Position numbers and translations under genes: made by a program. Below are positions 2,057 to 22,709 of a DNA stretch of 64,000 nt, in pieces. The notes under the pieces were generated by a model. The model saw nothing but the letters and a program-made list of their open reading frames with translations. It had not been told where the DNA came from and made no database searches. Position 1 is the stretch's first letter. Each line of letters starts with the position of its first letter. Source of the DNA: Candidatus Omnitrophota bacterium (lineage in GTDB: Bacteria > Ratteibacteria > UBA8468 > MWAK01); the NCBI GenBank assembly GCA_043826355.1, contig JBDRQI010000005.1:48678-112677 (forward strand), written 5' to 3'.

Positions 2057-2722
2057 TTAGGTACGTGTAGGCCTGGGGCCGAAAATACCGGTACCGATGC
2101 GCACCAGATTAGCGCCTTCCTCAATAGCCACCCGGTAAGAATCGCTCATACCCATCGAGAGATAACGCATCTCCGCGTTTGACGGAACAGAACTTTTAAG
2201 CCCTGCCCATAATGCCTTTGTCTCCTTAAAATACGGCCTTAAGTCCTCAGGGTTAATGCAAGTCGGCCCCATAGTCATTAACCCCATAATTTTTAGGTTG
2301 GAAAATCCGGAGATTTTTATGAGAAACGGCTCCACCTCTTCCGGCATCACGCCGAACTTCTGGGGTTCCCTTCCGCTGTTTACTTCAACAAAGATTTCTA
2401 TTTTCTTGCCGATGGCTCTGCTGCGGCGGTCAATCTCCGCGGCCATCTCCGGAGAATCAACCGTCTCAATGAGGTCAAAGAGCGCAACCGCTTTCTTTAT
2501 CTTGTTCTTCTGGAGATGGCCGATGAAATGCCAGGAAATTTTGCGGCCGACCGCTTGAAAATGGGCCTCTGCTTCCTGCAAGTAATTCTCGCCGATAATT
2601 CTCACCCCGGCTTCCACCGCCCCCAGGATTTCCGCCGGGCTCCGGCTTTTTGCCGCCGCAACCAATTCGCAACCGGCCGGCAGTTTTCCTAAAATCTCCT
2701 TTACGTTATCCGTAATGATCAT
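2057..2722 (-). CDS. yggS: YggS family pyridoxal phosphate homeostasis protein
   Basis: About 220 aa with an alanine-racemase N-terminal-like fold (VAAAKSRS...IGENYLQE...HFIGHLQ.NK). Confidence 0.8.
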   Translation of the reverse strand: MIITDNVKEILGKLPAGCELVAAAKSRSPAEILGAVEAGVRIIGENYLQEAEAHFQAVGRKISWHFIGHLQKNKIKKAVALFDLIETVDSPEMAAEIDRRSRAIGKKIEIFVEVNSGREPQKFGVMPEEVEPFLIKISGFSNLKIMGLMTMGPTCINPEDLRPYFKETKALWAGLKSSVPSNAEMRYLSMGMSDSYRVAIEEGANLVRIGTGIFGPRPTRT

Positions 2723-4662
2723 AGTATTAAATTTAACAATATCCCGGTCAAAAAAGCAACGGACAGGGTCAGAACCAATATTTTTGCCGTATCTTTTATC
2801 CCCATCTCTTTTAACAGAACGAAAAAGGTGGCCAGGCAGGGCAGGTACAAGACCAGAAAGGTGCTGGCCACGACCAGCTGTTTGGCGGAAAGGTTAAACG
2901 GCACCAGCAGCGCGATGGATATATCTTTTCTCAAAAAGCCCAGAAGCATGACCGAAGAGATTTCACCGGGCAGACCCAGCATCTTGACGATAACTGGTTC
3001 GAATGGCTTTGAAATAAATTCGATGATGCCGGCTATATCCAGGATATTCACGAAAAGGACGCCCAGCATAATCAGGGGAATCGCTTCAAAGATAAAACTT
3101 TTTACCCTCATCCAGAGTTTTTTCAGCAGCGGCAATATCCTCGGCATCTGATAGGCGGGGATTTCAACGAACAATTCGGGGGCCTCACCTTTCAACAACT
3201 TGTTAAGAACGGAACCGCTGATTACGGCTACAGCCAAAAGCGTCCCGAAAACGATGGCCAGATATCTCAAACCGTATTTTCCCAGGATACTCAAAATCAT
3301 CGCGCTTTGCGGCATGCAGGGGGCAATCATTATAATCAGCGTCAGCGCAATGACCTTCTCCCGGCGCGTCTCCAGAATTCTGGCAGAGAGCATCGCAGGA
3401 ACCTTGCAGCCCAAACCCAGGATTAACGGGATGGCGCCGTAACCGTGCAGGCCGAATTTATGCAGAATGTTGTCAAGCAAAACGGCCAGGCGGGGCAAAT
3501 ACCCTAAATCCTCCAGAAAACCCAGGACAAAATAAAAAGATAATATGTAAGGAAGCACGACGACAAAGGGAATGTAGATGCCGGTGGTAAGAACGCCGAA
3601 AGATTCCATAACACCATGGGTAGTCCCCAAAAATAAGTTCTGCAAAACACCCGGAGGAAGAAGAAATTTTACTGCGTCAGTAACCGCCGGATGATATACC
3701 CTGTTAAAGAACGGGTCAAGGATACGGGTTATCAGGCCTTCGCCCACAAACCTTATGACATAAAAAGTAAGCGCCAGAACGATAAAAGCGATGGGAAAAC
3801 CCGTCAAAGGCCTGATGCAGGCATCGGCCAGTTTCTCCAGGAAGGAAGGATGCTTGTGCACGGTCTTCTGGACATGGCCGCTGATTTCACCTATTAATTT
3901 CCATTTTTCGTCGTTCCCCGCCGGAATTTGCCGGGACGGGGCGCGCCGGGTGGAGATGGTTTCTTTAAACGCCTTTAAAAAATCTTTAATGCCTTCGCCG
4001 GTAACAGCCACAAAAGGAATTGTCTCTACCCCCACCCTCCGGGACAACCCCTCAAGGTCAATGCTGATGCCCTTCCATTTCGCCATATCCCACTTATTAA
4101 GCAGGATAATCGTGGGTATGCCTTTTTCCAATATTTGCAGCGAGAGATAAAGGTTTCTTTCCAGGTTGGTTGCGTCAACCACGTTTACGACCAGGTCCGG
4201 CTTTTCCCGCAACAACATTTCGGATGCCACTTCTTCCGCTTTATTGGTGGGTTCAAGGGTATACGCGCCGGGAACGTCGATAATCTTAATCCGCTCCTTC
4301 TCCACCCAGGCGGTGCCGGATGTATACTCAACGGTTGTTCCCGGATAATTTGAACAGATGGCATCCAGCCCGGTCAACCTGGAAAAGACCGCGCTCTTGC
4401 CCACGTTGGGGTTGCCCATCAAAAGAACTTTTATCTTTCTTACCTCCACCATTATCTTTTTGGCCATCCCGTATCCGACGGCGGACTTGGAACCGTCTAT
4501 TTCCAGCACCACCGGCCCGCCGCGGCTTGGTTCGTTTACCCTGCGAACCGTTTTACCAACCCGGATTCCCAAACTCTCCAGTTTCCGCCTTAAACCATGG
4601 CCGCCCTGCAGTTCTTTGATTATGCCCTGCTCGCCCGATTTTAATTCACTCAATGTAAGCAT
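2719..4662 (-). CDS. feoB: ferrous iron transporter FeoB with N-terminal FeoA domain fused
   Basis: FeoA-like SH3 domain in the first ~75 aa, then G-domain GNPNVGKS and DxxG, then a polytopic membrane domain. Confidence 0.9.
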   Translation of the reverse strand: MLTLSELKSGEQGIIKELQGGHGLRRKLESLGIRVGKTVRRVNEPSRGGPVVLEIDGSKSAVGYGMAKKIMVEVRKIKVLLMGNPNVGKSAVFSRLTGLDAICSNYPGTTVEYTSGTAWVEKERIKIIDVPGAYTLEPTNKAEEVASEMLLREKPDLVVNVVDATNLERNLYLSLQILEKGIPTIILLNKWDMAKWKGISIDLEGLSRRVGVETIPFVAVTGEGIKDFLKAFKETISTRRAPSRQIPAGNDEKWKLIGEISGHVQKTVHKHPSFLEKLADACIRPLTGFPIAFIVLALTFYVIRFVGEGLITRILDPFFNRVYHPAVTDAVKFLLPPGVLQNLFLGTTHGVMESFGVLTTGIYIPFVVVLPYILSFYFVLGFLEDLGYLPRLAVLLDNILHKFGLHGYGAIPLILGLGCKVPAMLSARILETRREKVIALTLIIMIAPCMPQSAMILSILGKYGLRYLAIVFGTLLAVAVISGSVLNKLLKGEAPELFVEIPAYQMPRILPLLKKLWMRVKSFIFEAIPLIMLGVLFVNILDIAGIIEFISKPFEPVIVKMLGLPGEISSVMLLGFLRKDISIALLVPFNLSAKQLVVASTFLVLYLPCLATFFVLLKEMGIKDTAKILVLTLSVAFLTGILLNLIL

Positions 4663-4669
4663 GCAGATT

Positions 4670-5590
4670 TCAGGAGTTAACGCTGTGGTATTCGTTTTTC
4701 CCGATACGCCGATTTTTAATCAGACCTTTTTTTGTCAAACCGCCCAGGACTTTAATTATCTCATTCGGGTTGCAACCGGTAACCAAAACGATGTCTTGTA
4801 GGGTCAACGGCCGGCGTTTAAGCGTCGCCAGAATGAGTTCTTCTTCGGCCTGAAAATGGGCCGGTTCCCGTCCGGCAAATTCCGCGATTATCTCGCAACC
4901 CGGCCCGATAATTTCAGCGGCTTTTTCCATCTCAGCCTGGACAAGGGGGAAGAATCCTTCTTCCGCCGGAGGCCGCACCACGGTATTCAACTGAATTTTG
5001 TCGATTTTTAAAGATTTAATTGTCTTTCGTATCTTCTCTAGTTCGGACTTTGAATCGTTAACACCTTTCACCAGCATTATTTCCAGCCATATCTTGCCCG
5101 GATACTCCCGGCTGAATTTACGCAGACCTTCAATCATAATCTTCGATTTCAAATCCGGGTGGGGCCGGTTGACAGCTTGAAAAATTTTCTCGGAAACCGC
5201 GTCCAGGGAAGGAACCACAACATCCGCCTCCATTAAATCCTGCCGCACTTCTTTTTGGCAAAGTAGAGAACCGTTGGTCAGGACCGCAATGGGAATCCGG
5301 GTAATCTTCTTTAAACCACAAATCATCTTACCCAGTTCGGAATTGAGGGTCGGCTCACCGGAACCGGAGAAGGTAAGGAAATCTACGCGGGGATTCTTCT
5401 TAAGGAGTTCGGTAACTTCGGCAATTATCGTTTCCGCCGGCACATATGGTTTTCGCTCCAGGGTCAATTCCGGCGTCGGCCCCAACTGGCAATAAACGCA
5501 GTTGAGCGTACAGGTTTTGGCCGGAATAACGTCGATCCCCAGCGAAAAACCTAAGCGTCGTGAAGGCACCGGCCCGAAAAGATGCTCCAT
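4670..5590 (-). CDS. radical SAM protein (GPVPSRRLG-type) with C-terminal winged-helix domain
   Basis: CTLNCVYC is a CxxxCxxC radical SAM motif, preceded by FGPVPSRRLGFSLGI. The C-terminus looks like a wHTH (LTLQDIVLVTGCNPNEIIKVLGGLTKKGLI). Confidence 0.65.
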   Translation of the reverse strand: MEHLFGPVPSRRLGFSLGIDVIPAKTCTLNCVYCQLGPTPELTLERKPYVPAETIIAEVTELLKKNPRVDFLTFSGSGEPTLNSELGKMICGLKKITRIPIAVLTNGSLLCQKEVRQDLMEADVVVPSLDAVSEKIFQAVNRPHPDLKSKIMIEGLRKFSREYPGKIWLEIMLVKGVNDSKSELEKIRKTIKSLKIDKIQLNTVVRPPAEEGFFPLVQAEMEKAAEIIGPGCEIIAEFAGREPAHFQAEEELILATLKRRPLTLQDIVLVTGCNPNEIIKVLGGLTKKGLIKNRRIGKNEYHSVNS

Positions 5591-5624
5591 ACCTTTTTAT
5601 CATAACCGAAAGCAAGGGAAATCG

Positions 5625-6248
5625 TCAATGAACCTTCTTTGCGCTAACTACAACAAATCCGCCTTTACCGAACCCTTTTCCGGGATTTTGAATTGAACCT
5701 ATTTTTTCGGGTAAATTATATATAGTTTGATAATATGAAAATCTGCCAAAGCCCGTCTTTTTCAACAAGTCAGTCAGTTCACCGACGCTGAAAAATTTTG
5801 CCTGTTTGTAAAATACGCTCTTTTTCTTCTGATAGAACCTGCCTAAAAAACTATCCCGGTCGACGATGCCGAGAATTATCCTGCCTTCTTTTTTTAAAAC
5901 CCTCCTTGCCTCGATCAAAACTTTTAAAGTATTTCTGACAAAACAGATGGTAATTATAATTACGGCATAATCAAAAACAGAATCTTCAAACGGCAGTCTT
6001 TCCCCATAACTCAGATGCGCGTCTATGCCTCTTTTACGGGCGATTCCAAGCATATTTTCCGAAGGGTCAACTCCATACCTTATCCCCAGAGCAGACGCAA
6101 ATCTCCCTGTACCCACGCCGATTTCCAATCCTTTGCCTTTTTTCGGTAAAACCTTTTTTATGGCTTTCAGTTCCGAAAGATAGGCAAATGTATTCCGCTC
6201 ATACCAGGCATCATACTTTTTGTAATATCGGTCAAATATGCCTTCCAT
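5625..6248 (-). CDS. class I SAM-dependent methyltransferase
   Basis: Motif I LEIGVGTGRF; about 200 aa Methyltransf_11-like. Confidence 0.75.
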   Translation of the reverse strand: MEGIFDRYYKKYDAWYERNTFAYLSELKAIKKVLPKKGKGLEIGVGTGRFASALGIRYGVDPSENMLGIARKRGIDAHLSYGERLPFEDSVFDYAVIIITICFVRNTLKVLIEARRVLKKEGRIILGIVDRDSFLGRFYQKKKSVFYKQAKFFSVGELTDLLKKTGFGRFSYYQTIYNLPEKIGSIQNPGKGFGKGGFVVVSAKKVH

Positions 6249-6272
6249 ATCCGTGTTTGCTTGAAGCGCCCG

Positions 6273-7544
6273 TCACGAATTCACCGATTGAGACTCATCA
6301 AGCGAATGTGTCGGCGCAATAATCTGTTCAAGTTTATTGTCGCGATATTTCTCAATCACCTCTTTTACCGTTGAGTCTTCGTCTATCTTATAAATGTCCA
6401 CAAAATTATCTTTCAGCATATAGAAAGACAATTCTCCGATGCGGGATGTAAAGAGCAAATCCAGTTTATATTTAACGACGGTCTTGATAACTTTAATCCC
6501 TATGTGTTTAGTTTCTTTAAGAAACTCATTATAGTAAAAATCTTCTATCTCCGGCTCGTCATTTTTGAGCCTTAAAATAAGGTAATAAGGCGCCCGGCCA
6601 AAATGTCCGTAAACTTTTGAATTTAAACCATCAATATTTTTTACCGGAATAACGGCTGAAACAGCTTTTTCTTTTGACGGTTCAACGTGAATGAAAACCG
6701 ATTCTATGTGTTCGTAATTTTTTACTATAAAATCTTCCGTTTTATCCGCTAATTCATGCGCCCGGTATAAAGGCAAAGCGGGAGAAGTTTTTATTTTGCA
6801 CTCAACCATCTTAAAAGGGCCTGCCTGTCGAATCTTTACCTCGCTTACGCCTTTCACTCCATATATTTCATTTACCTTTTTTTCAATTTCGTTTTGTAAC
6901 TCCGGGTCAAGATTCGCATCCATTAAAACCAAAAATGCTGTCCGCGCATTCGTTAAACCCAGTTTAAAGATAAGGATTGAAATCAATATGATAACAAAGC
7001 CTTCAACGTAGGGAATCTTCGCGTAAACCAATACTATGCCTAAAAGAACTACTATTGATGTATAAATATCCAAAAACGATTCGGAAGCATTGGCCAGAAG
7101 AGACTGCGAACCTATTGCCCGACCAACCGCTTTCTCTTTTTTTGCGATAAAATAGGCGGCGATGATGGAAATTATACTTGCGCCAACCGGAAAAATTGAA
7201 ATTTCCCGAATAGAAAGAGGACGAAAAAATCTTTGGTACCCGTCTTTGAAAATCTGGATTCCCGCCCAAACAATTAAAATACCGATGATAAGGCTTCCCA
7301 ACGTCTCCGCTTTATACAATCCGTAAGGAAATGTCTTGCTTTTTTTCTTGGAAGCAAGCCACAGGCCGAATCCGGAAGCAAAAATAGCCAAAACGTCGGC
7401 TCCGCTGTGGAAAGCATCGGCTATCAATATCTTTAAATCAAATAAATACCCCACCGCCGCTTTTATCAGAGCCAAAAAAATTGTCGCAAAAGTCGCAATG
7501 AAGGCTATTTTCTGTCCTTGTTTTAAACCTTCCGTTCTCTCCAT
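6273..7544 (-). CDS. cation diffusion facilitator (CDF) transporter fused to a C-terminal NifX/NifB-like (dinitrogenase FeMo-cofactor biosynthesis) domain
   Basis: Six-TM CDF core (ADAFHSGADV..., LYKAETLGSLIIG) plus cytoplasmic domain. The extra ~120 aa C-terminus carries VYGHFGRAPYYLIL, typical of the NifX-like domain family. Confidence 0.7.
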   Translation of the reverse strand: MERTEGLKQGQKIAFIATFATIFLALIKAAVGYLFDLKILIADAFHSGADVLAIFASGFGLWLASKKKSKTFPYGLYKAETLGSLIIGILIVWAGIQIFKDGYQRFFRPLSIREISIFPVGASIISIIAAYFIAKKEKAVGRAIGSQSLLANASESFLDIYTSIVVLLGIVLVYAKIPYVEGFVIILISILIFKLGLTNARTAFLVLMDANLDPELQNEIEKKVNEIYGVKGVSEVKIRQAGPFKMVECKIKTSPALPLYRAHELADKTEDFIVKNYEHIESVFIHVEPSKEKAVSAVIPVKNIDGLNSKVYGHFGRAPYYLILRLKNDEPEIEDFYYNEFLKETKHIGIKVIKTVVKYKLDLLFTSRIGELSFYMLKDNFVDIYKIDEDSTVKEVIEKYRDNKLEQIIAPTHSLDESQSVNS

Positions 7545-7553
7545 AGCAAAAAC

Positions 7554-7772
7554 CTATTCCTCATGGAAAAATTGGCGGGCCATAATGGAACCGCACCGCG
7601 GACATCTTGTCTGGAAACAAGGCAACCCGGAACTGCGCGGCATAATCAAACCGCATTTAGGACAAACGCAAACGGGCACGGGTCCCCGGGAACCAAAAAC
7701 CCCCGGCCATCTTCCGTGAAATCCCCTCCCCCTACCGCCTCTACCCCTACCTTTTCCGAAACCAAACGGCAT
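7554..7772 (-). CDS. DUF5320-like Gly/Arg-rich small protein with C-terminal zinc ribbon
   Basis: MPFGFGKGRGRGGRGRG... then CPKCG...CPRCG. Paralogous to 19906-20151 and to the DUF5320 protein at 22304-22708. Confidence 0.6.
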   Translation of the reverse strand: MPFGFGKGRGRGGRGRGFHGRWPGVFGSRGPVPVCVCPKCGLIMPRSSGLPCFQTRCPRCGSIMARQFFHEE

Positions 7773-7858
7773 TTTTTCTCCTTTTCAGCTAAAAAATTTT
7801 TACAATTTGTGATGTAAGTTTTGCCAGTTTTTTTTTATCGATTCGGAATTTTTTCGTT

Positions 7859-9703
7859 TCACTTTTCTAAGATTTTCCGCACCTTTCCCCAGATCTTCTT
7901 TATGCTGTCGGTTAAGGCCGTATTTGTATATTCAACCACCGAAAGTTTCCGCATCTGCGCTTCCGTAACCTCTTTTCCGTACGGTATCACCCCCAGAAAT
8001 TCCGAACCGTGTTTCCCCGAAAGTTCCCTTATCTTTTCGGTCATTTCTTCATTCAAATCATACTTGTTTACGACTATGCCCGACTTGACCCCAAAATGCT
8101 TGATTACCTGCAATATCCTTTCCAAATCGTGCACGCCGGACACCGTGGGCTCGGTAATTGCCAGGGCGTAATCGGCTCCCGTAATGGAAGATATTACCGG
8201 ACAGCCCGTGCCGGGGGCTCCGTCCATTACGGCCCTGTTTCTCTTATTCCGCTCGGCAAGCAGGGCGGCTTTATCCCTGACCAGAGTAACCAACCTGCCG
8301 GAGTTTTCCTCGGCCACTCCTAATTTAGCGTGGCTCATCGGGCCAAACCGGGTATCGGACATAAACCATTCGCCGTTAACGGCCGGCCTGGTCTTTACGG
8401 CGCCATACTCACACACCAATTCGCACACCCCGCATCCTTCGCAAGCCAGTTTATCAATTATATATCTTTTTTTATTCTTCTCCCGGAATTCATTAATGGC
8501 AAAAAATCTGCAGGCTTCTTTACATTTTCCGCATTGGACACACGCCTTCTGGTCTATTTCCGCCTCTACCCCCCCACTAAAAAAACTTTTCTCTTTTATT
8601 CGGGGCGATAAGACCAGATGCAAGTCCGCCGCGCCGACATCGCAATCGGAAATCACGCTATTTTTTGCCAAAGCGGCGAAAGACGCCGTCAAAGAAGTTT
8701 TTCCGGTTCCGCCTTTTCCGCTGATAACCACTAATTCCCTGGGCTTTTTAGCTCCGGAAACGCCGTACTTCCTGACTTCTTCAGGAATTTTTTTACCGGA
8801 TAATCTATCCTTTTTCACTAACTTCGGTATTTTTTTCTCACCTTGGGCCAAAATTAATATTTTATCACCCAGGGTTTCAAACATTTTTTTTATTTCGGGA
8901 AACTTCTCTACCGCCATTTCACCCCGGGAATAACTTTCGGCTATCCGCCGTTGGTCGGGAATTTCTCCGATTATATCCAGTTCTTCCTTTAAACAATATT
9001 CCTTTAAAGCCGCATCTTTATATTCGGCCCGATTGACTATTATTACCGGTTCCTGTCCTACTTCCCTGGCCATATCTACGGAAAGTTTCAGGTCGTTTAT
9101 ACCAAAAGGAGTGGGGTCGGTAACCAGAATGCATACATCAACGTCTTTAACCGTTTCCACCACCGGACAACTTGTCCCGGGCGCCGAATCCAAAATATTA
9201 ATTCCTTCTCCGATACATTCTTTTACTCTTTTTACCAACCGGGGCGACATACCCCCCTCTGCCGTTTCCAGCAACGCGTAATAGACCTTTATCTTATCGC
9301 TTACACCCTCCTTCATAACGCCTATTTTTCTTTTCTTTTCAATAATCGCATCCACCGGACAGACAATCTTGCATGCGCCGCAGACATGGCATAACTCGTT
9401 GAATATGAGTACCTGTTTGTTAACCACCGCTATCGCATTATATTTGCAGACCTGTGCGCATTTACCGCATAAGATGCATTTTTTTTTATCCGCCTCCGCC
9501 GGGGCGATTAAATTAATATCTTCTTCCTTGTTGATGACGGGCTTAAGAAACAGGTGCCCGTTAGGTTCTTCCACATCGCAGTCCAGATAGCGAATCCGGC
9601 TGTACTTTTCAGCCAATACCTTTGCCAGATTTGTTGCGATAAAAGTTTTGCCTGTTCCGCCTTTGCCGCTGGAAATAGCAATTTTTATGTTAATTTTTTT
9701 CAT
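7859..9703 (-). CDS. tandem-duplicated MinD/ParA-type P-loop ATPase with 4Fe-4S ferredoxin inserts
   Basis: Two Walker A motifs (SSGKGGTGKT and ISGKGGTGKT), each followed by a double CxxCxxCxxxCP ferredoxin cassette. Confidence 0.8.
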   Translation of the reverse strand: MKKINIKIAISSGKGGTGKTFIATNLAKVLAEKYSRIRYLDCDVEEPNGHLFLKPVINKEEDINLIAPAEADKKKCILCGKCAQVCKYNAIAVVNKQVLIFNELCHVCGACKIVCPVDAIIEKKRKIGVMKEGVSDKIKVYYALLETAEGGMSPRLVKRVKECIGEGINILDSAPGTSCPVVETVKDVDVCILVTDPTPFGINDLKLSVDMAREVGQEPVIIVNRAEYKDAALKEYCLKEELDIIGEIPDQRRIAESYSRGEMAVEKFPEIKKMFETLGDKILILAQGEKKIPKLVKKDRLSGKKIPEEVRKYGVSGAKKPRELVVISGKGGTGKTSLTASFAALAKNSVISDCDVGAADLHLVLSPRIKEKSFFSGGVEAEIDQKACVQCGKCKEACRFFAINEFREKNKKRYIIDKLACEGCGVCELVCEYGAVKTRPAVNGEWFMSDTRFGPMSHAKLGVAEENSGRLVTLVRDKAALLAERNKRNRAVMDGAPGTGCPVISSITGADYALAITEPTVSGVHDLERILQVIKHFGVKSGIVVNKYDLNEEMTEKIRELSGKHGSEFLGVIPYGKEVTEAQMRKLSVVEYTNTALTDSIKKIWGKVRKILEK

Positions 9704-10031
9704 ATTTACCGTATTTCTCGCAATTTTTTATCTGGGAAACCGTCCTTTTCGATTCCTGCCTCCTGTTTTGCCACGGCCAAAATCTCCTCTCCTTCCAAAA
9801 GAATTTCTGCCTGTAAAAAAGGGGGGTGGGGTTTTTAGAAAAATTCAGGTCGTTTTTTGACGGACTAAAATTAATTGCTCTCGCAGGACAAACATTGACA
9901 CACCTACCGCACTCGGTGCATTTATTAGTACTAATATGAGCAATATCTTTAATTAGAGTTATTGCTTGCGCCGGACAAACATTTATGCAAGCGCCACAAC
10001 CTCTACATTTAGTAATGTTAACGCACACCAT
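9690..10031 (-). CDS. 2x[4Fe-4S] ferredoxin
   Basis: CRGCGACINVCP and CTECGRCVNVCP. The ~50-aa low-complexity tail crosses homopolymer runs and overlaps the downstream gene by 14 nt, so the true stop is uncertain. Confidence 0.65.
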   Translation of the reverse strand: MVCVNITKCRGCGACINVCPAQAITLIKDIAHISTNKCTECGRCVNVCPARAINFSPSKNDLNFSKNPTPLFYRQKFFWKERRFWPWQNRRQESKRTVSQIKNCEKYGKYEKN

Positions 10032-10586
10032 TTAATGCCTCCTGAAATTTAATACATAGCCCTCGTTGTAACTTTTATCGTGCAGAAGAATCCTTAGAAC
10101 CTTTTTCTCAAGAATAAAACCGGCTTTTTCTATTTCCTCCACCACGCCGTCCAGATTAACATCAGTCAACTCCATTGCAGGGTGGTCTTCTTTGTGATGT
10201 CTTGAGTAAACGGAAAGAAAACCCTCTTTTTTTAAAACCCGGCGAATCTCATTATAAATGACAGTTCTTCTCTTTCTGTTCTGGTAGTGGATAACGTCAT
10301 AACATAAAACCGCATCCAAGAAATCATCTTTTAAAGGAATTTTTGAGTCCTTTTTTATTAACTCAATGTTTTTTATATTACCCTTTTTCACTCTTTCTTT
10401 TAATCTATCCAGAGCATCCTTGTCCCTGTCCAGAGCGTATACTTTAGCCGCTATTTTTGAGGCGGGAATTGTGTAGTGCCCCTCGCCTGAACCAAAATCC
10501 AGGATAGTTCGGCCTTTTTTAATTCCGATTTCTTCTAAAAATTTTTCACCGTCCTGTTCCATCCATTTTTTAACATAATTTTCCAT
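10032..10586 (-). CDS. class I SAM-dependent methyltransferase
   Basis: Motif I ILDFGSGEGHYT; about 180 aa. Confidence 0.75.
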   Translation of the reverse strand: MENYVKKWMEQDGEKFLEEIGIKKGRTILDFGSGEGHYTIPASKIAAKVYALDRDKDALDRLKERVKKGNIKNIELIKKDSKIPLKDDFLDAVLCYDVIHYQNRKRRTVIYNEIRRVLKKEGFLSVYSRHHKEDHPAMELTDVNLDGVVEEIEKAGFILEKKVLRILLHDKSYNEGYVLNFRRH

Positions 10587-10628
10587 CTTAACGTTTACTC
10601 TTCATTGCGCCGGTTTAAAAATCAACGT

Positions 10629-10877
10629 TTATTTGCTGTATAATTCTTCGAAAACGCTTTCGGCGGCTAACGCTATCGGTTCTCTGCCGGGGTCAGGGGA
10701 CAATTCCGGCTGACCGGCGCATCTCAAAATAGATTCTTGTTTCGCTGCAATCACTTTCTCATTAGGTTCCCGAATTATGGTTACTTCAAAAAAAGGTTTC
10801 AGTTTTTTTACCGCGAGAGCGGCTAACGCGCCGCATCCGGAACATCCTATTGCAACAACTCTTTTTTTTCCATCCAT
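10629..10877 (-). CDS. hypothetical small Cys-containing protein
   Basis: 82-aa ORF in the operon, VVAIGCSGCGALAA. No recognisable family. Confidence 0.35.
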   Translation of the reverse strand: MDGKKRVVAIGCSGCGALAALAVKKLKPFFEVTIIREPNEKVIAAKQESILRCAGQPELSPDPGREPIALAAESVFEELYSK

Positions 10878-10922
10878 CTTTCTCCTGCAGGTGCACCTCG
10901 TTTTATAAAGCGTTTGCCCGCT

Positions 10923-11165
10923 TCAAAAATTCGTCGGGCAACTTCCGGTTGGACAAGTCGGACAAGAAGAATCTGAATTCTTGTTGCCGGAAGAAACGTT
11001 AATTCCAAAAGAAGCGAAACCCTTTTCAATATTCTTGCTTCCGCATTTCTGACACTTCAATTTTACCGTTTCAGAAGATACGCCTACCAGCAGGTCAAAC
11101 CTATAACCACAATCTTTACAAACATAAACATAAACAGGCATTGTTTGTCGCCTCCTTTCAAGCAA
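10923..11165 (-). CDS. FmdB family zinc ribbon protein
   Basis: MPVYVYVCKDCGYRF...CQKCGS; ends with a Cys-rich tail. Confidence 0.75.
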   Translation of the reverse strand: MLERRRQTMPVYVYVCKDCGYRFDLLVGVSSETVKLKCQKCGSKNIEKGFASFGINVSSGNKNSDSSCPTCPTGSCPTNF

Positions 11166-11189
11166 TGCTTCCTTTTTTCACTCTTGCTT

Positions 11190-12842
11190 TTACCGAAAGT
11201 ACATATTTTCTGCTACCAAATAGGCAAAATCTTTTTCCGTTTCATTAGGTTTGCAGTGTTCTATTTTTTTCGCAATCTCTTTCGCCGTTTCCCTTCGTTG
11301 CCTGGATAAAAGCATTTCTCTTGCTCCCTCTAGGGCGCCGTTTCCGATTTTTACAACTTTTTCTTCTTCTGCTTCCGGAATCAAACCGATTTTCATGGCG
11401 TTTTTGACGTTTATGAAATTACCGAAACCGCCGGCAAGATAAATTCTGCTTATGTTTTTTAAATCTACCGGGTACTGTTTCATTAAAAGGTCCTGGTCGG
11501 TTCTTAATCCGCCTTTGGCGGTAATAAGTTGATAAATATCCTGCTGGCTAATTTTAATTTTTCCGGTTACATAAAAATCCTGCCCTATTTTTGCTGTTTT
11601 GCTCATAATTCCATGAGTTAAAAGCTCAGCCAGCAAATCTATTAAGCCGGAACCGCAAATGCCTATCGGATGTTTATCTTCTATTGTTGAGTAAGCAACT
11701 CTTCCGTTAATTATTTCTACCTGTTTTATCGCTCCTCCGATGGCGCCGCAGCCGGAGGAAATCGTTGTGCCTTCATAAGCGCCTCCGGCGGCGCAGGAAG
11801 CGCTTATCATCCTTTCGGAATTACCCAAAACTATCTCGCCGTTGGTTCCTATGTCGATAACCATACCTACCTCTTTATTTTTATATATTTCAGACGCCAA
11901 GACATCCGCCACCGTATCCGCGCCGGCATGTCCGCCAATTAACGGCGCCCCAAAAACCCGGCCCTTTGAATTAATCAAAAGACCTATTTCCTCGGGTTTT
12001 TTAATTACCGATTCCTTATGGCCGGGTTCAAAAGGAATTAATCCAAGTGAAGCGACGTCAAACCCAAAAAAAAGGTTCCTCATTGTGGGGTTGCCTACAA
12101 CAACCGCCTCATAAATATATCGTAAAATATCCTCTTCGCACCTTTCCGAAATCTCTTTAATGGAACTATTTATTGATTCCACCACCGTTTCCTGCAGTAT
12201 TCTTACCCTTTCCGTTCTTTCGTTCTCTTTAAAATATCGCCCTTTTTCTTCATCTACAAGAGTAAATCCGATTCGGGAAATGACGTCGTTTCCATAAGAA
12301 ATCTGAGGATTCGTCTTGGCAACTGTGGCGATAACATCTCCGTTTTCCAGGTTTACAAGGTCAAAAACCAGAGTAGTTGTGCCCACGTCTATAGCTAATC
12401 CGTAAATTTTGCCTTGATATTTGTCAATTTCTTCTTCGTTTTTAAAAACCTTGTCTCCTTTTTTATAAAAAACGGGGTTGACGGGAACCTCTTTTTCTGT
12501 TCCGCTTTTCAATATTTCATATTCTCCAAAACTCTTCATAAAAACAGACATATCCTTCAGTTCCCGAATAATGGTCGTTTGACAGGCCAACCTTTCGTTA
12601 GCGCCCAGTTTAAAATTTTTCTCGGCATGGGTCAGTTCATTCAAATTTTCTTTTCCTTTTTCTATCCTTACGATACATTTGCCGCATTTGCCCTGGCCTC
12701 CGCATTCTGCATTTATCTTGACTCCCGAGTTTCTTGCAAGGTCAAGAATAGAGAGCCCCGGATGTATTCTTGTTCCCGTCTTTCCCTGTTTAAACTGGGG
12801 AAAATATATGTCACACATTATTTTCTCCCTTTGACATTTCAA
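11190..12842 (-). CDS. ASKHA-domain (DUF4445) protein with N-terminal 2Fe-2S ferredoxin domain (RACo-like reductive activator family)
   Basis: Plant-type ferredoxin cysteines (ECGGQGKCGKC...LACQ), then a large sugar-kinase/Hsp70-fold ATPase domain, as in corrinoid-protein reductive activators. Confidence 0.65.
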   Translation of the reverse strand: MKCQREKIMCDIYFPQFKQGKTGTRIHPGLSILDLARNSGVKINAECGGQGKCGKCIVRIEKGKENLNELTHAEKNFKLGANERLACQTTIIRELKDMSVFMKSFGEYEILKSGTEKEVPVNPVFYKKGDKVFKNEEEIDKYQGKIYGLAIDVGTTTLVFDLVNLENGDVIATVAKTNPQISYGNDVISRIGFTLVDEEKGRYFKENERTERVRILQETVVESINSSIKEISERCEEDILRYIYEAVVVGNPTMRNLFFGFDVASLGLIPFEPGHKESVIKKPEEIGLLINSKGRVFGAPLIGGHAGADTVADVLASEIYKNKEVGMVIDIGTNGEIVLGNSERMISASCAAGGAYEGTTISSGCGAIGGAIKQVEIINGRVAYSTIEDKHPIGICGSGLIDLLAELLTHGIMSKTAKIGQDFYVTGKIKISQQDIYQLITAKGGLRTDQDLLMKQYPVDLKNISRIYLAGGFGNFINVKNAMKIGLIPEAEEEKVVKIGNGALEGAREMLLSRQRRETAKEIAKKIEHCKPNETEKDFAYLVAENMYFR

Positions 12843-13728
12843 GTGTTTGGTTATAGGAAAGTAAAATTACATCGCCCACTTTGCAACCTATCTCTCCGGC
12901 AATTACCGGACATTTTGCCATAAGAAGAAAAAAGATGGGGCCGGCTACCGCAGAAAGCGCCTCGAAATTTCCCTGTCCCTTGCTGATAATCAAATCAGCC
13001 TTTTTGAATCTTTTTAAAAAATCTTTTGAGCAGCGGGAAAGAATCGTCGCGGGAACGTCTGAACCGGATGATGCTATCTGCGCCGATTTGTCTATTCCGC
13101 AAAAATAGGCGTCTGCTGCCAGGGCGTCGTTTATTGCCGGTTTTTCTTTTACGGCATAAATAATGTTTTTAGAGCTGTCCCTAATCTTGATTTCTTCAAT
13201 AAAGACACGGTCAAACAACGTTTCACCCGCATTATCCGCCAGATAAAGAACGTTTTTTGCTTTATCAAGAGCGTTTTTAAACTGCGGATAATTAAAAAAG
13301 CGGTTATCTTCCGCGCCGATTGCTCTTTTTTCTTCAGCCAGAATTTTTTTAAGTTCTTTGCCTACATTCAAAGAATTTTTTACGCCGCAATCCAGGATAT
13401 TGCCGGCGATAGCAAGTTCAGCGGCCGTCAATAACCTGTCACGGCTTTCTTGCAATTTTTTCTTCAATTTACCGTAGATACTTAAAGCCAAGTTGTTGCT
13501 CTTTTTTTTTATTTCGGCATAGGGGTCGTTGACTCCGGTATGTTTCTTAACTATCCCGTGAATCACCCTGGCCATTTCCGGCGGGGACAAGGTCAAGGAA
13601 AAACCGGGCAGGGCTCCGGCAACCTTGTCTAATATTTCCTTTTGCCCCTCTTCTGACGCCCCGGCCATCCGCGCGGCTTCTAATGCTTGCTTAAAAAAAC
13701 AGGGGATGCAATCCAAAAAAGTTCTCAT
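12811..13728 (-). CDS. DUF89 / ARMT1-like damage-control phosphatase family protein
   Basis: N-terminal CIPCF motif characteristic of the DUF89 subfamily; about 300 aa. Confidence 0.7.
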   Translation of the reverse strand: MRTFLDCIPCFFKQALEAARMAGASEEGQKEILDKVAGALPGFSLTLSPPEMARVIHGIVKKHTGVNDPYAEIKKKSNNLALSIYGKLKKKLQESRDRLLTAAELAIAGNILDCGVKNSLNVGKELKKILAEEKRAIGAEDNRFFNYPQFKNALDKAKNVLYLADNAGETLFDRVFIEEIKIRDSSKNIIYAVKEKPAINDALAADAYFCGIDKSAQIASSGSDVPATILSRCSKDFLKRFKKADLIISKGQGNFEALSAVAGPIFFLLMAKCPVIAGEIGCKVGDVILLSYNQTLEMSKGENNV

Positions 13729-13752
13729 CTATTCTTATTGTCAATCAGTAAT

Positions 13753-14601
13753 TTAATTACTCTTGTTGCTTTTCAAAAATTCTTTGATTTTATTTATAAT
13801 GCCTTCCATATTTTTTGCTGCCGGGCTTTCGTTTCCGGAGGAAATAAACGGCTTTCCGGCATCTCCGGATTTTACCACGGCAGGTTCCATCGGAATTCTT
13901 CCCAGAAACGGCACCTTTAAGTCGCGGGCAGACTTTTCACCGCCGCCGGTTCCGAATAAATCTATTTCTTTCAGGCAGTGCGGACATATAAAACCGCTCA
14001 TATTTTCAATTATTCCCACAACGGGAACTTTTACTTCCTTTGCAAATGAAACGCTTTTTCTTGAATCCAGTATGGCCACCTCCTGGGGGGTGGTGACGAT
14101 AACTGCCCCGTCTATATCCGGAATAAGCTGGCATACGCTTAAAGGCTCGTCTCCGGTTCCGGGAGGAGAATCTATTATCAGATAATCAAGTTCTCCCCAG
14201 TTCACGTCGCTTAAGAATTGTTTTATGGTCATCATCTTTAAAGGTCCGCGCCAGATTACCGGCTGGTCTTTATCTTGCAACAAAAAAGAGAGACTTACCG
14301 CTTTTAAATTAGCCGAGACCGCAACCGGCTCGATACCCGCCTCAGAACCGGCAAATTTCTTTTCTTCGATTCCCAGCATCTTGGCGATATTGGGTCCGTG
14401 AATGTCTACATCTAAAATTCCTACCTTATTTCCTTTAACAGCCAAACCATAGGCTAAATTAACCGCCACGGTCGTCTTACCGACTCCGCCCTTGCCGCTC
14501 ATTACAATAAGTTTATACTTAATCTTAAACATACGTTCTTTAAGTTGCCTGTCCTGCTCAATCCCCTCCTTTTCTCTTTTTTTCTCGTCAATGTTTTGCA
14601 T
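13753..14601 (-). CDS. apbC: Mrp/NBP35 (ApbC) iron-sulfur cluster carrier ATPase
   Basis: Walker [12 protein letters not shown] and the CPHC cluster-binding motif. Confidence 0.85.
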
Positions 14602-14622
14602 TGCTTAACCCTCATAAAATTT

Positions 14623-15276
14623 TTACAAAATATTTCGTCTAGCTATGAGAACATGCTGGTAAATACTTTTCGCTTCTTTAACCGAAAAACCTTTTTCTTC
14701 AAGATAAAACGTGATATCTGAAAGCGTTATTTTTCCAGATTCATGCCTTTTACCTTCAAGCGCGTGAATCTTATCTATAATTCGAAAACCTTCTTCCGTA
14801 AAATCACTTAGAACGAGTTTGCCGTTCCGCGAAAGGACGCGGACCAACTCGTCTACCGCCCGGTAAGGATTACGCATGTGATGAAGGACATTAACCGAAA
14901 ATACCACACCAAAACTTCCGTCGGTAAAACTCGTATGTTCGCCGTTTTCTATCCTGAAATTTGTTGATTTTTCAAGACCGAAATAGATTAAATTTAATCT
15001 TGCAAAACGCTGTTCCTTCTCTGAAACATCAAAAGTAAAAAACGAGTATCCCTGTTTTGCCAGCGCAAGCGCAAAATGTCCCTTCCCGGTCCCGGCCTCG
15101 AGAATTTTACCGTAAAAAGGTTTTGCCTGTTCTAAAATAAAATCCCGTTCCTTCTCCAGAGAGTAGCCGAAACTTTTATAAACCTTTTTTCGTGCAAGAT
15201 ATTCTCTATGGTTCTCGCGTATTTCCTCGCTGAATTTATATTTTTCTGAATCAAAAATCTCCGCCTCTTTATTCAT
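14623..15276 (-). CDS. class I SAM-dependent methyltransferase
   Basis: Motif I ILEAGTGKGHF; LHH post-I motif. Confidence 0.75.
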   Translation of the reverse strand: MNKEAEIFDSEKYKFSEEIRENHREYLARKKVYKSFGYSLEKERDFILEQAKPFYGKILEAGTGKGHFALALAKQGYSFFTFDVSEKEQRFARLNLIYFGLEKSTNFRIENGEHTSFTDGSFGVVFSVNVLHHMRNPYRAVDELVRVLSRNGKLVLSDFTEEGFRIIDKIHALEGKRHESGKITLSDITFYLEEKGFSVKEAKSIYQHVLIARRNIL

Positions 15277-15303
15277 GGATAAAACAGTTATTTTATATAA
15301 AAA

Positions 15304-17069: not shown

Positions 17070-17155
17070 TTTGAAATTTCCTGTACTCTAAAAAACTCAA
17101 ACAGGCGTGCCCTTAGAATAAGCTACGGTTATTTCTTTTTTAAGGCCGGCTTCTC

Positions 17156-18703: not shown

Positions 18704-18737
18704 TTATTTGTTTTACTTTGTTATTGCGGAAGGATCT

Positions 18738-19058: not shown

Positions 19059-19105
19059 AAGGCCTCCTCTTTTTTATCTAATACGAACGCATTAAATCTT
19101 TTTAT

Positions 19106-19175
19106 GTAGGGGTCGGATTCATCCGACCCGCGGGCTTGATAAATCAAGCCCCTACAAAATCCTTATGTAAATTTA
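19106..19175. repeat. Family-B palindromic repeat (GTAGGGG...GCCCCTACAA..TGTAAATTTA)
   Basis: Nested hairpins ggtcggattcatccgacc and gggcttgataaatcaagccc. Related copies at 30557-30606 and 31495-31570. Confidence 0.65.
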
Positions 19176-22708: not shown

Positions 22709-22709
22709 C

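Follow-up and report, generated by a model that had tools for sequence, protein, structure and literature searches.

A widespread fusion of a cation diffusion facilitator with a NifX-fold domain, and its small six-cysteine partner protein, in anaerobic bacteria

Gene neighbourhoods that bring together non-nitrogenase NifX-like proteins, DUF5320 proteins and MinD-ferredoxin ATPases are among the commonest unexplained neighbourhoods in anaerobes, and of these systems only fragments have been characterised: the orange protein (ORP), MrpORP and IssA. [quoted passage not shown] In IssA of Pyrococcus furiosus, a globular IPR003731/PF02579 domain is combined with a cationic, disordered region in which Gly, Arg and aromatic residues abound; the NifX-like domain binds Fe and S, and for the cationic Gly/Arg/Trp tail a role in binding anionic thioferrate has been proposed (PMC5524996). 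A NifX/NifB domain is also joined to an iron-handling protein in FmpB (DMR_41100) of Desulfovibrio magneticus RS-1, by its published description a magnetochrome/PDZ protein on which a normal number of magnetosomes depends (PMC4287615). Closely spaced locus tags in an ANME-2a archaeon belong to a cation diffusion facilitator (CDF), ferredoxins, a P-loop NTPase and a protein of the NifX family (PMC12622379). Among the CDFs themselves, the closest described proteins are YiiP/FieF of E. coli and Shewanella, a structurally characterised Fe/Zn-CDF, and the iron-type CDFs MamB and MamM. Neither MamB nor MamM has a NifX-fold domain, and a fold search returned no solved CDF chain that carries one.

The locus described here lies in a window of 64,000 nucleotides, the whole stretch of DNA that was analysed, from a Candidatus Omnitrophota bacterium (contig JBDRQI010000005.1). 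The gene at 6273..7544 (minus strand) is one unbroken open reading frame (ORF) with an ATG start and a GAGGAA Shine-Dalgarno-like motif ~15 nt 5' of it; the 423-aa product matches exactly the database record MFH2068318.1, which NCBI labels 'cation diffusion facilitator family transporter'. Three Pfam domains follow one another along the chain, each above its own gathering score: PF01545 (Cation_efflux; residues 15-208, E 9e-42, 143.5 bits against a cut-off of 26.6), PF16916 (ZT_dimer; residues 212-289, E 1e-16) and PF02579 (Nitro_FeMo-Co; residues 308-401, E 2e-14, 54.1 bits against a cut-off of 26.3, profile positions 2-93 of 94). The CDF model TIGR01297 covers residues 11-291 with 196.6 bits (cut-off 82.35), and the NCBIfam scan at E<=0.01 returned CDF models and a CrcB fragment only. 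An AlphaFold2 (AF2) model of the full protein, built on a 60-sequence alignment and leaving the relative orientation of the domains uncertain (pTM 0.55), places six transmembrane (TM) helices before the CDF cytoplasmic domain (CTD) and a further C-terminal domain. Pfam, TIGR01297 and AF2 agree on the canonical six-TM core and cytoplasmic domain that a first-pass annotation had read in this protein, and the co-occurrence of PF01545 and PF02579 in one polypeptide that it had proposed to look for is there, with PF16916 between them. The C-terminal extension, which it had put at ~120 aa, measures 133 aa after the CTD; the motif that it had assigned to the NifX/NafY/NifB-C family, GHFGRAPYYLIL, is present at residues 313-324.

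By its profile matches, six helices, transport-site residues and CTD, the protein is a member of the CDF family (TIGR01297/PF01545, TC 2.A.4). The transmembrane domain (TMD; residues 1-208, 6921..7544, minus strand) was delimited from the AF2 helices, hydropathy and an alignment to YiiP. The predicted helices (residues 2-34, 38-65, 74-107, 117-144, 147-174 and 178-207) are 27-34 residues long, in agreement with hydropathy, and by analogy with the rest of the CDF family the N- and C-termini would lie on the same side of the membrane. A fold search matched YiiP and ZnT structures, and YiiP was both the best PDB sequence match (E 7.5e-16, residues 14-290) and the best fold match of the fusion protein. 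The two proteins share the six-TM fold and a CTD but are only ~22% identical. The quartet H46 and D50 (TM2) with E155 and D159 (TM5) aligns on D45, D49, H153 and D157 of E. coli YiiP, giving HxxxD rather than DxxxD in TM2 and ExxxD rather than HxxxD in TM5, where the changed residue is a carboxylate as in the Mn-CDF motif DxxxD. The transport site is intact: among 76 diverse family members, as low as ~25% identity to the window protein over the C-terminal half, D50 is found in 76 and D159 in 73, position 46 is His in 56, Asn in 10 and Asp in 9, and position 155 is Glu in 48, His in 15 and Asp in 12. Within the close family, 64 of the 208 TMD positions are at least 98% invariant.

The CTD (ZT_dimer; residues 209-290, 6675..6920, minus strand) is defined by PF16916 and by its AF2 fold, alpha-beta-beta-alpha-beta over residues 214-289. 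Its sequence matches are the CTDs of MamM/B (structure 6qek), CzrB and TM0876-type proteins. H263, H286 and E288 align with H261, H283 and D285 of YiiP and are kept in 61-63 of the 76 family sequences.

The H-D/E-D quartet matches no canonical CDF selectivity pattern and so does not settle the choice of Fe against Mn, Zn, Co or Ni. The curated CDF models that scored highest were MamB (125 bits), MamM (122), FieF (97) and MntE (94), each below its equivalog cut-off (350, 350, 420 and 500 bits, respectively), whilst the Zn-type models ZitB and DmeF gave 42 and 30 bits. Judged from its sequence, the exporter may carry a metal of the Fe(II)/Mn(II) type. Because MamB and MamM head the ranking of curated CDF models and the fusion occurs in phyla that overlap with magnetotactic groups, a magnetosome gene cluster was considered; it was rejected, as the scanned ORFs of the window include no mam or mad genes and the MamB and MamM scores are far below their cut-offs.

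The feature that sets the protein apart from YiiP is the added 133-aa domain, together with a small partner gene (below). The NifX-fold (PF02579) domain and its tail make up residues 291-423 (6273..6674, minus strand), as delimited by the Pfam match, a domain-only AF2 model (pLDDT 91.2) and Foldseek. A linker of ~4 residues joins it to the CTD, so that it starts ~5 residues past the CTD ligands H286 and E288. The model runs beta-beta-beta-alpha-beta-alpha-beta-alpha over residues 294-401, RNase-H-like, and the 14 best PDB matches in Foldseek are all PF02579 structures (TM up to 0.85), the next matches having E>0.01; structure prediction and fold search together confirm the NifX fold. The best of the 14 are non-nif proteins (Ta1041m, TM1816, orange protein, MJ0327, TM1290, PH0822 and MTH1175; E 4e-10 to 6e-6) and the weakest are the true NifX and NafY (E ~4e-5). 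On the predicted structure, the fused domain is nearer to the orange protein (2wfb, same fold, TM 0.76/0.84, rmsd 2.1 A), TM1290 and MTH1175 than to NifX or NafY; MTH1175, the modelling template of IssA, is a sequence match as well.

The NifX-fold domain is conserved to the same degree as the membrane domain (mean top-residue frequency 0.82 vs 0.81), most clearly at S309, H314-F-G-R317, N339, G370-E371, Y385 and P411-T412. It has no cysteine, nor is one conserved in it across the family; the sole Cys of the protein, C249, is in the CTD. The fusion resembles MrpORP in that a Di-Nase domain is joined to another protein, and such fusions arose repeatedly, but here the host is a membrane transporter rather than a P-loop ATPase. 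The cysteine-containing MrpORP motifs CxHFGHCE and CDH are absent, their places being taken by (Y)GHFGRAP and (A)PTH, so any cluster held by the fused domain would need ligands from a partner or non-covalent binding. FmpB differs in its fusion partner and in the system to which it belongs.

This architecture is widespread. All of the best 120 database relatives (68-100% identity) have the three domains in one polypeptide, the same order is kept in distant relatives down to ~25% identity, and the wider search for the fusion in other genomes that the first-pass annotation had suggested found it in 62 species-representative genomes, from anaerobes, and in at least 75 full-length clusters at 50% identity. 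The lineages include Omnitrophota, Planctomycetota-labelled MAGs and Victivallales, as well as Geobacter, Pelobacter/Syntrophotalea and Desulfobacterales among the database matches, and the relatives are all annotated as 'CDF family transporter' only. The architecture had been called unusual; it is common in databases, but a full-text literature search found neither the fusion nor its cysteine-rich partner described. The fusion proteins form a genuine family of membrane metal exporters that is widespread among anaerobic bacteria and apparently undescribed.

The partner gene (7554..7772, minus strand) lies 9 bp upstream of the fusion gene on the same strand, encodes a 72-aa protein and is missing from the NCBI annotation. 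Its N-terminus (residues 1-34) is 35% Gly, 21% Arg/Lys and 15% aromatic, with a pI of ~12, and is followed by the motif C35-x-C37-x2-C40-x11-C52-x4-C57-x2-C60 (Cys6), in which the six cysteines are invariant and the spacing is identical in 70 of 70 family sequences. Pfam and NCBIfam gave no family at cut-off, only sub-threshold similarities to zinc ribbons, and DUF5320 (PF17253) does not match the product at E<=1. A database relative (P0433) has the typical start MPRGDGTGP. In 56 of 59 species loci a homologue immediately precedes the fusion gene on the same strand, making this a near-obligate partner gene; in some lineages it is fused to a 2x[4Fe-4S] ferredoxin, and none of 88 loci has an in-frame fusion of partner and CDF. 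Such linkage suggests that the partner and the fusion protein are in physical contact.

The pairing extends beyond the transporter. Of 102 ORFs with the Cys6 motif, 66 are within 300 bp of a CDF-fused NifX domain, 13 are within 300 bp of a free-standing one and nine more are 0.5-1.4 kb from a free-standing one. Cys6 and NifX-like genes pair without any CDF at two sampled loci (L083 and L084) and in a second cluster within the window itself. There, two free-standing NifX-like genes of 126 aa each (20148..20528 and 20562..20942, minus strand; PF02579 E 3e-27 and 2e-22) are directly followed by a partner paralogue of 81 aa (19906..20151, minus strand) with the same Cys6 motif. The paralogue is 46% identical to the partner (E 6e-15), and its N-terminus reaches 25.2 bits against DUF5320, below the cut-off of 27 and over the N-terminal 42 profile positions only. 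The product of 20148..20528 shares 27% identity with the fused domain (E 4e-10), and that of 20562..20942 ends in VCDH. As the Cys6 protein pairs also with free-standing NifX-like proteins, the NifX-fold domain and the Cys6 protein would together form the functional unit.

The remaining neighbours of the fusion often belong to Fe-S trafficking. Upstream of the partner, 7859..9703 (minus strand) encodes two tandem-fused MinD/ParA-type P-loop ATPases, each carrying an inserted 2x[4Fe-4S] ferredoxin (CbiA in two stretches, four Fer4 matches), which are Orp3/Orp4-like and whose N-terminus matches MrpORP/ParA; this MinD-Fer4 family is found near the fusion in 21-23 of ~63 loci. An Mrp/NBP35-type Fe-S carrier ATPase (13753..14601, minus strand; PF10609 E 2e-99) matches the MrpORP model NF041136 with 384 bits at profile positions 3-256 of 365, that is, over the P-loop part only; unlike MrpORP it has no Di-Nase domain. 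Mrp genes are near the fusion in 20-24 of ~63 loci. The gene clustering of the ORP complex is present in the window in the form of 7859..9703 and 13753..14601, and the fusion shares with the ORP system both this company, Orp3/4-like MinD-Fer4 ATPases and an MrpORP-like Mrp, and its restriction to anaerobes. NifU-like, free NifX-like, DUF5320 and Fur genes recur alongside them, as do SAM methyltransferases, an ARMT1-like phosphatase, a pyridine-nucleotide disulfide oxidoreductase and an MBL-fold protein, which have no obvious Fe-S role.

On the downstream side, a radical SAM protein of 306 aa with a C-terminal winged helix (4670..5590, minus strand; PF04055) belongs to the commonest neighbour family after the partner (30-32 of ~63 loci). 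Next to it, 2719..4662 (minus strand; FeoA, FeoB_N, Gate, FeoB_C; TIGR00437 355 bits against a cut-off of 316) encodes a ferrous iron importer that combines FeoA and FeoB in a single chain; the gene runs in the same direction as the fusion gene and is closely packed with it. A general linkage to FeoAB or Fur was rejected, since only 4 of 64 loci have FeoAB close to the fusion, though the sampled locus L002 has it too, and only 6 have Fur. In the regions preceding the operon and the second cluster, the best Fur-box candidates had 12-13 of 19 matches, which is chance level. Promoter and terminator counts over 1900-11300 were at or below shuffled expectation, with no convincing terminator inside the gene block.

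Our tentative best explanation, to which as a whole we give slightly less than an even chance, is an antiporter joined to a unit that handles metal-sulfur species. The fusion protein would be a functional divalent-metal/proton antiporter on the Fe/Mn side of the CDF family, with its cytoplasmic regulatory domain extended by a cysteine-free NifX-fold domain of the non-nitrogenase type (orange protein, TM1290, MTH1175, IssA). This domain would work with the small Cys6 protein encoded upstream, and the fusion would anchor the unit at the cytoplasmic opening of a metal exporter. The pair may bind a labile, anionic metal-sulfur species, most likely iron-sulfur drawn from the ORP/Mrp-type carrier pool encoded nearby. 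As a sensor, the pair could then, depending on its occupancy, gate the transporter by way of the neighbouring metal site of the CTD; alternatively, as a feeder, it could hand Fe(II) to the transport site. Either way, iron freed from, or exceeding, the Fe-S pool would be exported in sulfidic, anoxic cells. Architecture, fold, intact transport site, conservation, partner linkage and gene neighbourhood are observed; the substrate metal, the ligand of the NifX-fold domain, its contact with the partner and the sensor or feeder logic are inferred. The coupling of efflux or sensing to a cluster-binding partner, raised in the first-pass annotation, is plausible, and a conserved partner gene exists.

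A different role for the NifX-fold domain would be docking only: binding no metal species, it would be an adaptor that recruits the MinD-Fer4 ATPases, Mrp and the Cys6 protein to the membrane or the transporter, for example at the pole or septum. Its lack of a conserved cysteine would suit such a role, and MrpORP sits at the pole, its Di-Nase domain has been suggested to mediate partner specificity, the ORP complex is linked to cell division and MinD/ParA-type ATPases often adjoin the fusion. However, the strong conservation of HFGR, which is the family-wide ligand-site motif, of N339 and of G370-E371 fits a binding pocket better than a mere adaptor, and the six invariant cysteines of the partner, at times with a ferredoxin domain, and the intact CDF transport site also speak against docking alone, which we consider unlikely.

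Quite unlikely too, in our estimate, is a more specific form of the metal-sulfur reading in which the two genes are a membrane-anchored, split version of IssA. The scaffold would be on the transporter and the cationic tail and Cys6 knuckle on the partner, and together they would assemble or dissolve thioferrate-like species at the mouth of an Fe(II) exporter. Compared by description, the N-terminus of the partner, at 31% Gly, 24% Arg/Lys and 11% aromatic residues in this comparison and with a pI of ~12, has the same chemistry as the disordered region of IssA. The arrangement differs, however: a single IssA chain carries first the globular domain and then the cationic tail, whereas in the two-gene module the cationic segment belongs to a second protein, which also bears a Cys6 knuckle, and the globular domain is attached to a transporter. 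The fusion protein itself has no long cationic tail: its NifX part has a pI of 6.0, and the tail after the domain is 22 residues long and not cationic.

In a third alternative, the domain would hold a cluster of the orange-protein type, [S2MoS2-M-S2MoS2] or its W counterpart, and the CDF would supply or remove M (Fe, Co, Ni, Cu or Cd) in a Mo/W-sulfide-linked metal detoxification. The orange protein is among the best structural matches, and in the part of the literature on it that bears on this point, ORP clusters are reported with each of these metals, bound non-covalently and with no need for Cys. The radical SAM neighbour has W-cofactor maturase and MoaA as its best NCBIfam matches, which leaves room for a Mo/W thiometallate, but these matches fall well short of their cut-offs (48 bits against 380). 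At one sampled locus (L085) a MoaA-like gene and a sigma54 activator are nearby, as in orp operons. The immediate operon in the window has no molybdate/tungstate transporter or molybdopterin gene, and whether the Mo-Cu cluster matters physiologically is itself an unsettled question; this alternative is very unlikely.

It is highly improbable that the CDF part has lost its transport activity and is kept only as a membrane anchor or dimerisation scaffold for the NifX-fold domain. The first TM5 ligand is Glu and not the canonical His or Asp, and only three residues of the YiiP CTD sites are kept, as a degenerate transporter might show. The near-invariance of D50 and D159 and the conservation of H46 and E155 down to ~25% identity, the many invariant TMD positions and the full-length TIGR01297 score of 197 bits are all against it.

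We regard as scarcely credible a NifX/NafY-type carrier of FeMo-co or NifB-co that ties nitrogenase cofactor traffic to metal efflux. The fused domain has in common with NifX, NafY and the NifB C-terminal domain the Pfam family, the fold and the HFG motif with its conserved His. The NifX and NafY NCBIfam models do not match the fusion protein at E<=0.01, Pfam found no nif genes among the ORFs scanned in the 64-kb window, and the Pfam lists of the sampled loci (L001, L002 and L083-L088) hold no nitrogenase families; the neighbours are orp-like rather than nif, and among the lineages with the fusion are Omnitrophota, Planctomycetota-labelled MAGs and Victivallales. With no nif context, no equivalog match and the weakest of the fold matches, FeMo-co or NifB-co biology is not inferable for this domain, and a nitrogenase role was rejected as unsupported; the earlier words 'binds FeMo-co and related clusters' are a family label and not a demonstrated property of this domain, which has no conserved Cys.

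An assembly artefact, in which a frameshift or mis-join united a CDF gene with a nifX-like gene, has only the a priori possibility in a MAG in its favour and is virtually ruled out, because hundreds of independent contigs, and 62 species genomes, share the single-chain architecture and its short, conserved junction. Of the two grounds for doubt named in the first-pass annotation, neither a merging frameshift (120 of 120 best relatives being continuous) nor a missing PF02579 match was found.

The fusion of an exporter with a NifX-fold domain bears on both of its halves. In Rosetta-stone manner, its conservation ties the NifX-like system to transmembrane metal flux, and it exposes a family of small proteins with at least 1,763 database members, which are unannotated and often missed by gene callers. 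For CDF biology, cytoplasmic regulation or substrate delivery through a cluster-carrier domain and a small Cys-rich partner would be new. The split-IssA arrangement, if true, would reveal a so far unrecognised route that directly connects the inorganic Fe-S store of anaerobes with iron flux across their membrane, and would give a biochemical role to the widespread NifX-like/DUF5320/ORP gene neighbourhoods. With metal tolerance, transport assays and, for the complex of the two proteins, spectroscopy as simple read-outs, the fusion family provides a testable handle on the role of the puzzling non-nitrogenase NifX-like proteins.

The feature at 6273..7544 (minus strand) is a single unbroken ORF with an ATG start, encoding 423 aa. 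The protein contains three Pfam domains: PF01545 Cation_efflux at residues 15-208 (E 9e-42); PF16916 ZT_dimer at residues 212-289 (E 1e-16); and PF02579 Nitro_FeMo-Co at residues 308-401 (E 2e-14; 54 bits versus a cut-off of 26.3). The motif GHFGRAPYYLIL occupies residues 313-324. All three domains are well above their gathering scores, confirming the first-pass annotation of a CDF core, a cytoplasmic domain and PF02579 in one polypeptide. The C-terminal extension that it described is also present, although it measures 133 aa past the CDF cytoplasmic domain (CTD) rather than ~120 aa. The CDF model TIGR01297 scored 197 bits against a cut-off of 82. The protein is thus a CDF family member that has every testable defining feature and, by both profile and fold, a member of the PF02579 superfamily. 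An identical NCBI protein, MFH2068318.1, is named 'MAG: cation diffusion facilitator family transporter [Candidatus Omnitrophota bacterium]', and every fusion protein whose source name was checked is called just 'cation diffusion facilitator family transporter'.

An AlphaFold2 model from a 60-sequence alignment (pLDDT 77) has six long TM helices, an alpha-beta-beta-alpha-beta CTD at 214-289 and, ~4 residues further on, a beta-beta-beta-alpha-beta-alpha-beta-alpha domain at 294-401, in an uncertain interdomain geometry (pTM 0.55). The whole model matched YiiP and ZnT structures and, separately, the NifX-type protein Ta1041m; no solved chain with both parts was among its matches. By alignment, H46/D50 (TM2) and E155/D159 (TM5) fall on D45/D49 and H153/D157 of E. 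coli YiiP. Among 76 diverse family members, D50 is present in all 76 and D159 in 73, position 46 is His in 56 (Asn in 10, Asp in 9) and position 155 is Glu in 48 (His in 15, Asp in 12); the transport site has therefore been maintained. In the CTD, H263, H286 and E288 are kept in 61-63 of the 76 sequences and align with YiiP H261, H283 and D285, which are part of regulatory binuclear site C. H286 and E288 are only ~5 residues ahead of the first strand of the NifX-fold domain. CDF CTDs are cytoplasmic metal sensors (YiiP, MamM, CzrB).

TM5 of the fusion reads ExxxD, a new variant; Zn- and Fe/Zn-CDFs have HxxxD and Mn-CDFs have DxxxD, per Montanini et al. (PMC1868760). The top curated CDF models were MamB (125 bits), MamM (122), FieF (97) and MntE (94), with ZitB (42) and DmeF (30) scoring low, and all curated equivalog scores were far under their cut-offs. 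Membership of the FieF, MamB, MamM and MntE equivalogs was rejected on those scores, and the pattern as a whole sets the protein apart as a clade of its own, nearer to the Fe/Mn than to the Zn members of the CDF family.

Modelled alone, the NifX-fold domain reached a pLDDT of 91.2. Its 14 best PDB matches were all PF02579 proteins, the next matches having E>0.01, and the NifX fold expected in the first-pass annotation is therefore confirmed. The top match was Ta1041m (E 4e-10); the D. gigas orange protein 2wfb (TM 0.76/0.84, rmsd 2.1 Å) and TM1816, MJ0327, TM1290, PH0822 and MTH1175 are further non-nitrogenase proteins, and genuine NifX (9ian_F, 3.5e-5) and NafY (1p90, 4e-5) ranked last of the 14. 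As modelled, the fused domain is closer to non-nitrogenase PF02579 members than to NifX/NafY. It is conserved to the same degree as the membrane part (mean top-residue frequency 0.82 versus 0.81), and S309, H314-F-G-R317, N339, G370-E371, Y385 and P411-T412 are conserved across the diverse family. The domain is thus strongly conserved, Cys-free and tightly tethered on the cytoplasmic end; the sole Cys of the protein, C249, is in the CTD and is not conserved. Where the Di-Nase domain of the Desulfovibrio MrpORP protein has the published motifs CxHFGHCE and CDH, the fused domain has GHFGRAP and PTH.

We searched the C-terminal half only (CTD and NifX-fold domain) against 1.84 billion 50%-identity cluster representatives, giving 714 matches at E<=1e-3, of which 204 reached E<=1e-10. 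Of the 150 top matches, 75 were proteins of 395-470 aa, which matched in one continuous stretch of ~residues 205-415 at identities down to ~25%. The architecture, first called unusual, is not rare: when each GTDB species was represented by one genome, 62 species had the full-length fusion. Using the taxon labels of the MAG records, these are Desulfobacterota sensu lato (27), Omnitrophota (8), Planctomycetota-labelled (6), Nitrospirota (5), Spirochaetota (4), Victivallales (4), Cytophagia (2), KSB1 (2), unclassified (2), Fibrobacterota (1) and Zhuqueibacterota (1). Given this range of phyla, the fusion is an old, diverse family of anaerobes. An Elusimicrobiota-labelled MAG has a truncated copy. 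The proteins in MAGs labelled Omnitrophota, Planctomycetia, Spirochaetota, Nitrospirota and Fibrobacterota (loci L003-L026, compared with the window) are 63-81% identical, which is unusually high for cross-phylum orthologues and may reflect horizontal transfer or unreliable binning or labels.

Unseen in the first-pass annotation, a co-oriented 72-aa ORF at 7554..7772 (minus strand) precedes the fusion gene by 9 bp. Of the 59 species loci with upstream sequence, 56 have a homologue immediately before the fusion gene in the same orientation; the exceptions are L028, L031 and L034, the last with a Gly-rich DUF5320-like ORF at that position. The ~34-aa N-terminus has a median of 31% Gly, 24% Arg+Lys, 11% aromatic and 3% acidic residues (pI ~12), and the motif C-x-C-x2-C-x11-C-x4-C-x2-C (Cys6) is invariant, with identical spacing in 70/70 sequences. 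No Pfam or NCBIfam model matched at cut-off, there being weak zinc-ribbon similarities only. A profile search placed at least 1,763 database proteins in this new, unannotated family; they are unnamed or 'hypothetical', except that ferredoxin-fused ones are named after the ferredoxin domain. The window's copy occurs in Logan-derived predictions only, without NCBI annotation, and small-gene callers seem to miss the family systematically. At L001 the ORF is present (7771..7989), yet skipped in the called-gene list. The full-text literature searched, with most subscription journals outside its coverage, held no description of the fusion or the Cys6 partner, and the combination of transporter and NifX-fold domain likewise appears to be new.

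We classed all 102 Cys6-motif ORFs in the window and in the other loci analysed according to the closest NifX-fold ORF. This was CDF-fused within 300 bp for 66 and beyond 300 bp for 3; free-standing within 300 bp for 13 and at 0.5-4.1 kb for 9 (8 of them within 1.4 kb); for 11 none was found in the locus, nearly all of them where a contig end cuts the CDF gene. At L083 and L084, and in a second cluster of the window, the Cys6 protein is beside free-standing NifX-like genes without a CDF. The conserved pair is thus the NifX-fold domain and the Cys6 protein, and the fusion puts this pair on a transporter. The partner is near-obligate, has a cationic disordered-type segment and also pairs with free NifX-like proteins.

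In MAGs labelled KSB1, Zhuqueibacterota or Cytophagia, and in some of Thermodesulfobacteriota, the partner carries a C-terminal 2x[4Fe-4S] ferredoxin (L036, L040, L044, L045, L046 and L075; P0324-P0365). In P0433 a ferredoxin, a DUF5320-like MPRGDGTGP segment and Cys6 are in one chain, linking the partner family to DUF5320. The window has a second NifX-like cluster at 18738..23201, all on the minus strand: Fur (22710..23201); DUF5320 (22304..22708); a 1-Cys peroxiredoxin, then a pyruvoyl arginine decarboxylase; two free-standing NifX-like genes (20562..20942 and 20148..20528); a Cys6 paralogue (19906..20151) with 46% identity to the 7554..7772 copy; an MBL-fold protein (19173..19886); and a DsrE-like protein (18738..19058).

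The fusion gene is within a co-directional, close-packed block at 2719..11165, with no convincing terminator inside it. On the minus strand, this runs from an FmdB-type zinc ribbon (10923..11165; a small protein beginning MPVYVYVCKDCG) through a small ORF (10629..10877), a class-I SAM methyltransferase (10032..10586), a ferredoxin (9690..10031) and a 614-aa double MinD-Fer4 ATPase (7859..9703) to the partner and the fusion, followed by a class-I SAM methyltransferase (5625..6248), a radical SAM protein (4670..5590) and FeoA-FeoB as one 647-aa polypeptide (2719..4662). This one gene block therefore pairs an iron importer with a putative exporter of iron. At least 8 loci have a member of the FmdB family (Zn_ribbon_8) close to the fusion. 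In the 7859..9703 product two MinD/ParA ATPases, both with a 2x[4Fe-4S] insert, are joined head to tail; other genomes have two adjacent ~285-aa genes instead (L002 2759-4473, L083 2717-4434). Farther upstream are a RACo/AcsV-like corrinoid reductive activator (11190..12842, minus strand; 2Fe-2S and ASKHA domains), an ARMT1-like phosphatase and an Mrp/NBP35 ATPase (13753..14601, minus strand), which aligns to the MrpORP model solely along its P-loop part (384 bits; profile positions 3-256 of 365). A third class-I SAM methyltransferase (14623..15276) is in the same gene block as the activator and the other two methyltransferases. None of the ORFs scanned in the window was identified as a corrinoid protein. 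GC is 0.39-0.45 in 6000..20000, the stretch with the fusion and the orp-like genes, and 0.49-0.55 in most of the window, which may reflect a different origin or simply compositional bias. The window is also rich in metal/ion transport genes. At 23395..26741 a radical SAM gene is embedded among genes for an ABC ATPase, a FecCD permease and a periplasmic binding protein; ZnuABC is at 27980..30554, and a P-type cation ATPase and TrkH are at 53701..56418 and 57017..58516, respectively.

Unbiased clustering of neighbours in 63 loci gave the following minimum frequencies, many of the contigs being short: radical SAM (30), MBL-fold (25), MinD-Fer4 (21), Mrp (20), pyridine-nucleotide disulfide oxidoreductase (14), ARMT1-like phosphatase (13), NifU-like (10), DUF5320 (9), free NifX-like (8 + 7) and Fur (6). 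Fe-S trafficking genes are thus frequent neighbours, and the surroundings are an 'orp-like' neighbourhood of anaerobes. The Desulfovibrio orp products include Orp3/Orp4 (MinD-like, with ferredoxin motifs), Orp8 (the orange protein, ORP) and MrpORP (Mrp and Di-Nase), which has an Fe-S cluster on its Di-Nase domain and passes Fe-S clusters on to Orp3/4 (PMC6345978). In an ANME-2a archaeon, closely spaced locus tags of a CDF, two ferredoxins, a NifX-family protein and a P-loop NTPase (PMC12622379) are consistent with the same association as separate genes.

Our tentative reading, to which we give somewhat less than an even chance, is that the domain and its partner bind a labile anionic metal-sulfur species, most likely iron-sulfur, and gate or feed the exporter. 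The domain might instead be a pure docking module for ORP-like proteins, which is unlikely. The IssA NifX-like domain of Pyrococcus furiosus binds Fe and S, and anionic thioferrate was proposed as the ligand of its cationic Gly/Arg/Trp tail (PMC5524996). The fusion does not fit the one-chain architecture of IssA. A split counterpart of IssA, anchored in the membrane and building or dissolving a thioferrate-like species at the mouth of a transporter that exports iron, is less likely again. ORP binds an anionic thiometallate cluster non-covalently (PMC6345978), and ORP-type Mo/W thiometallate handling, with the CDF moving a divalent metal, is marginally less probable still. That the CDF part is a non-transporting anchor is improbable; the CDF core is intact and its transport site conserved. 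The FeMo-co carrier of the first-pass annotation is very improbable: the protein is not a NifX or NafY proper, matching neither NCBIfam model; no nitrogenase gene was found among ~50 ORFs scanned across the 64-kb window or in the sampled neighbourhoods of other loci (L001, L002, L083-L088); and the diverse family alignment has no conserved cysteine in the domain. An assembly artefact, such as a frameshift merging two genes, can be dismissed, since all 120 best relatives (68-83% identity, on independent contigs) have the same three Pfam domains.

The fusion architecture is close to certain, and we are much less sure of the ligand and of the gating or feeding logic. If the pair does act on metal-sulfur species at the exporter, it would gate transport via the adjacent CTD site or pass Fe(II) to the transport site, linking the export of Fe(II), or perhaps Mn(II), to how the Fe-S pool of the cytoplasm stands.
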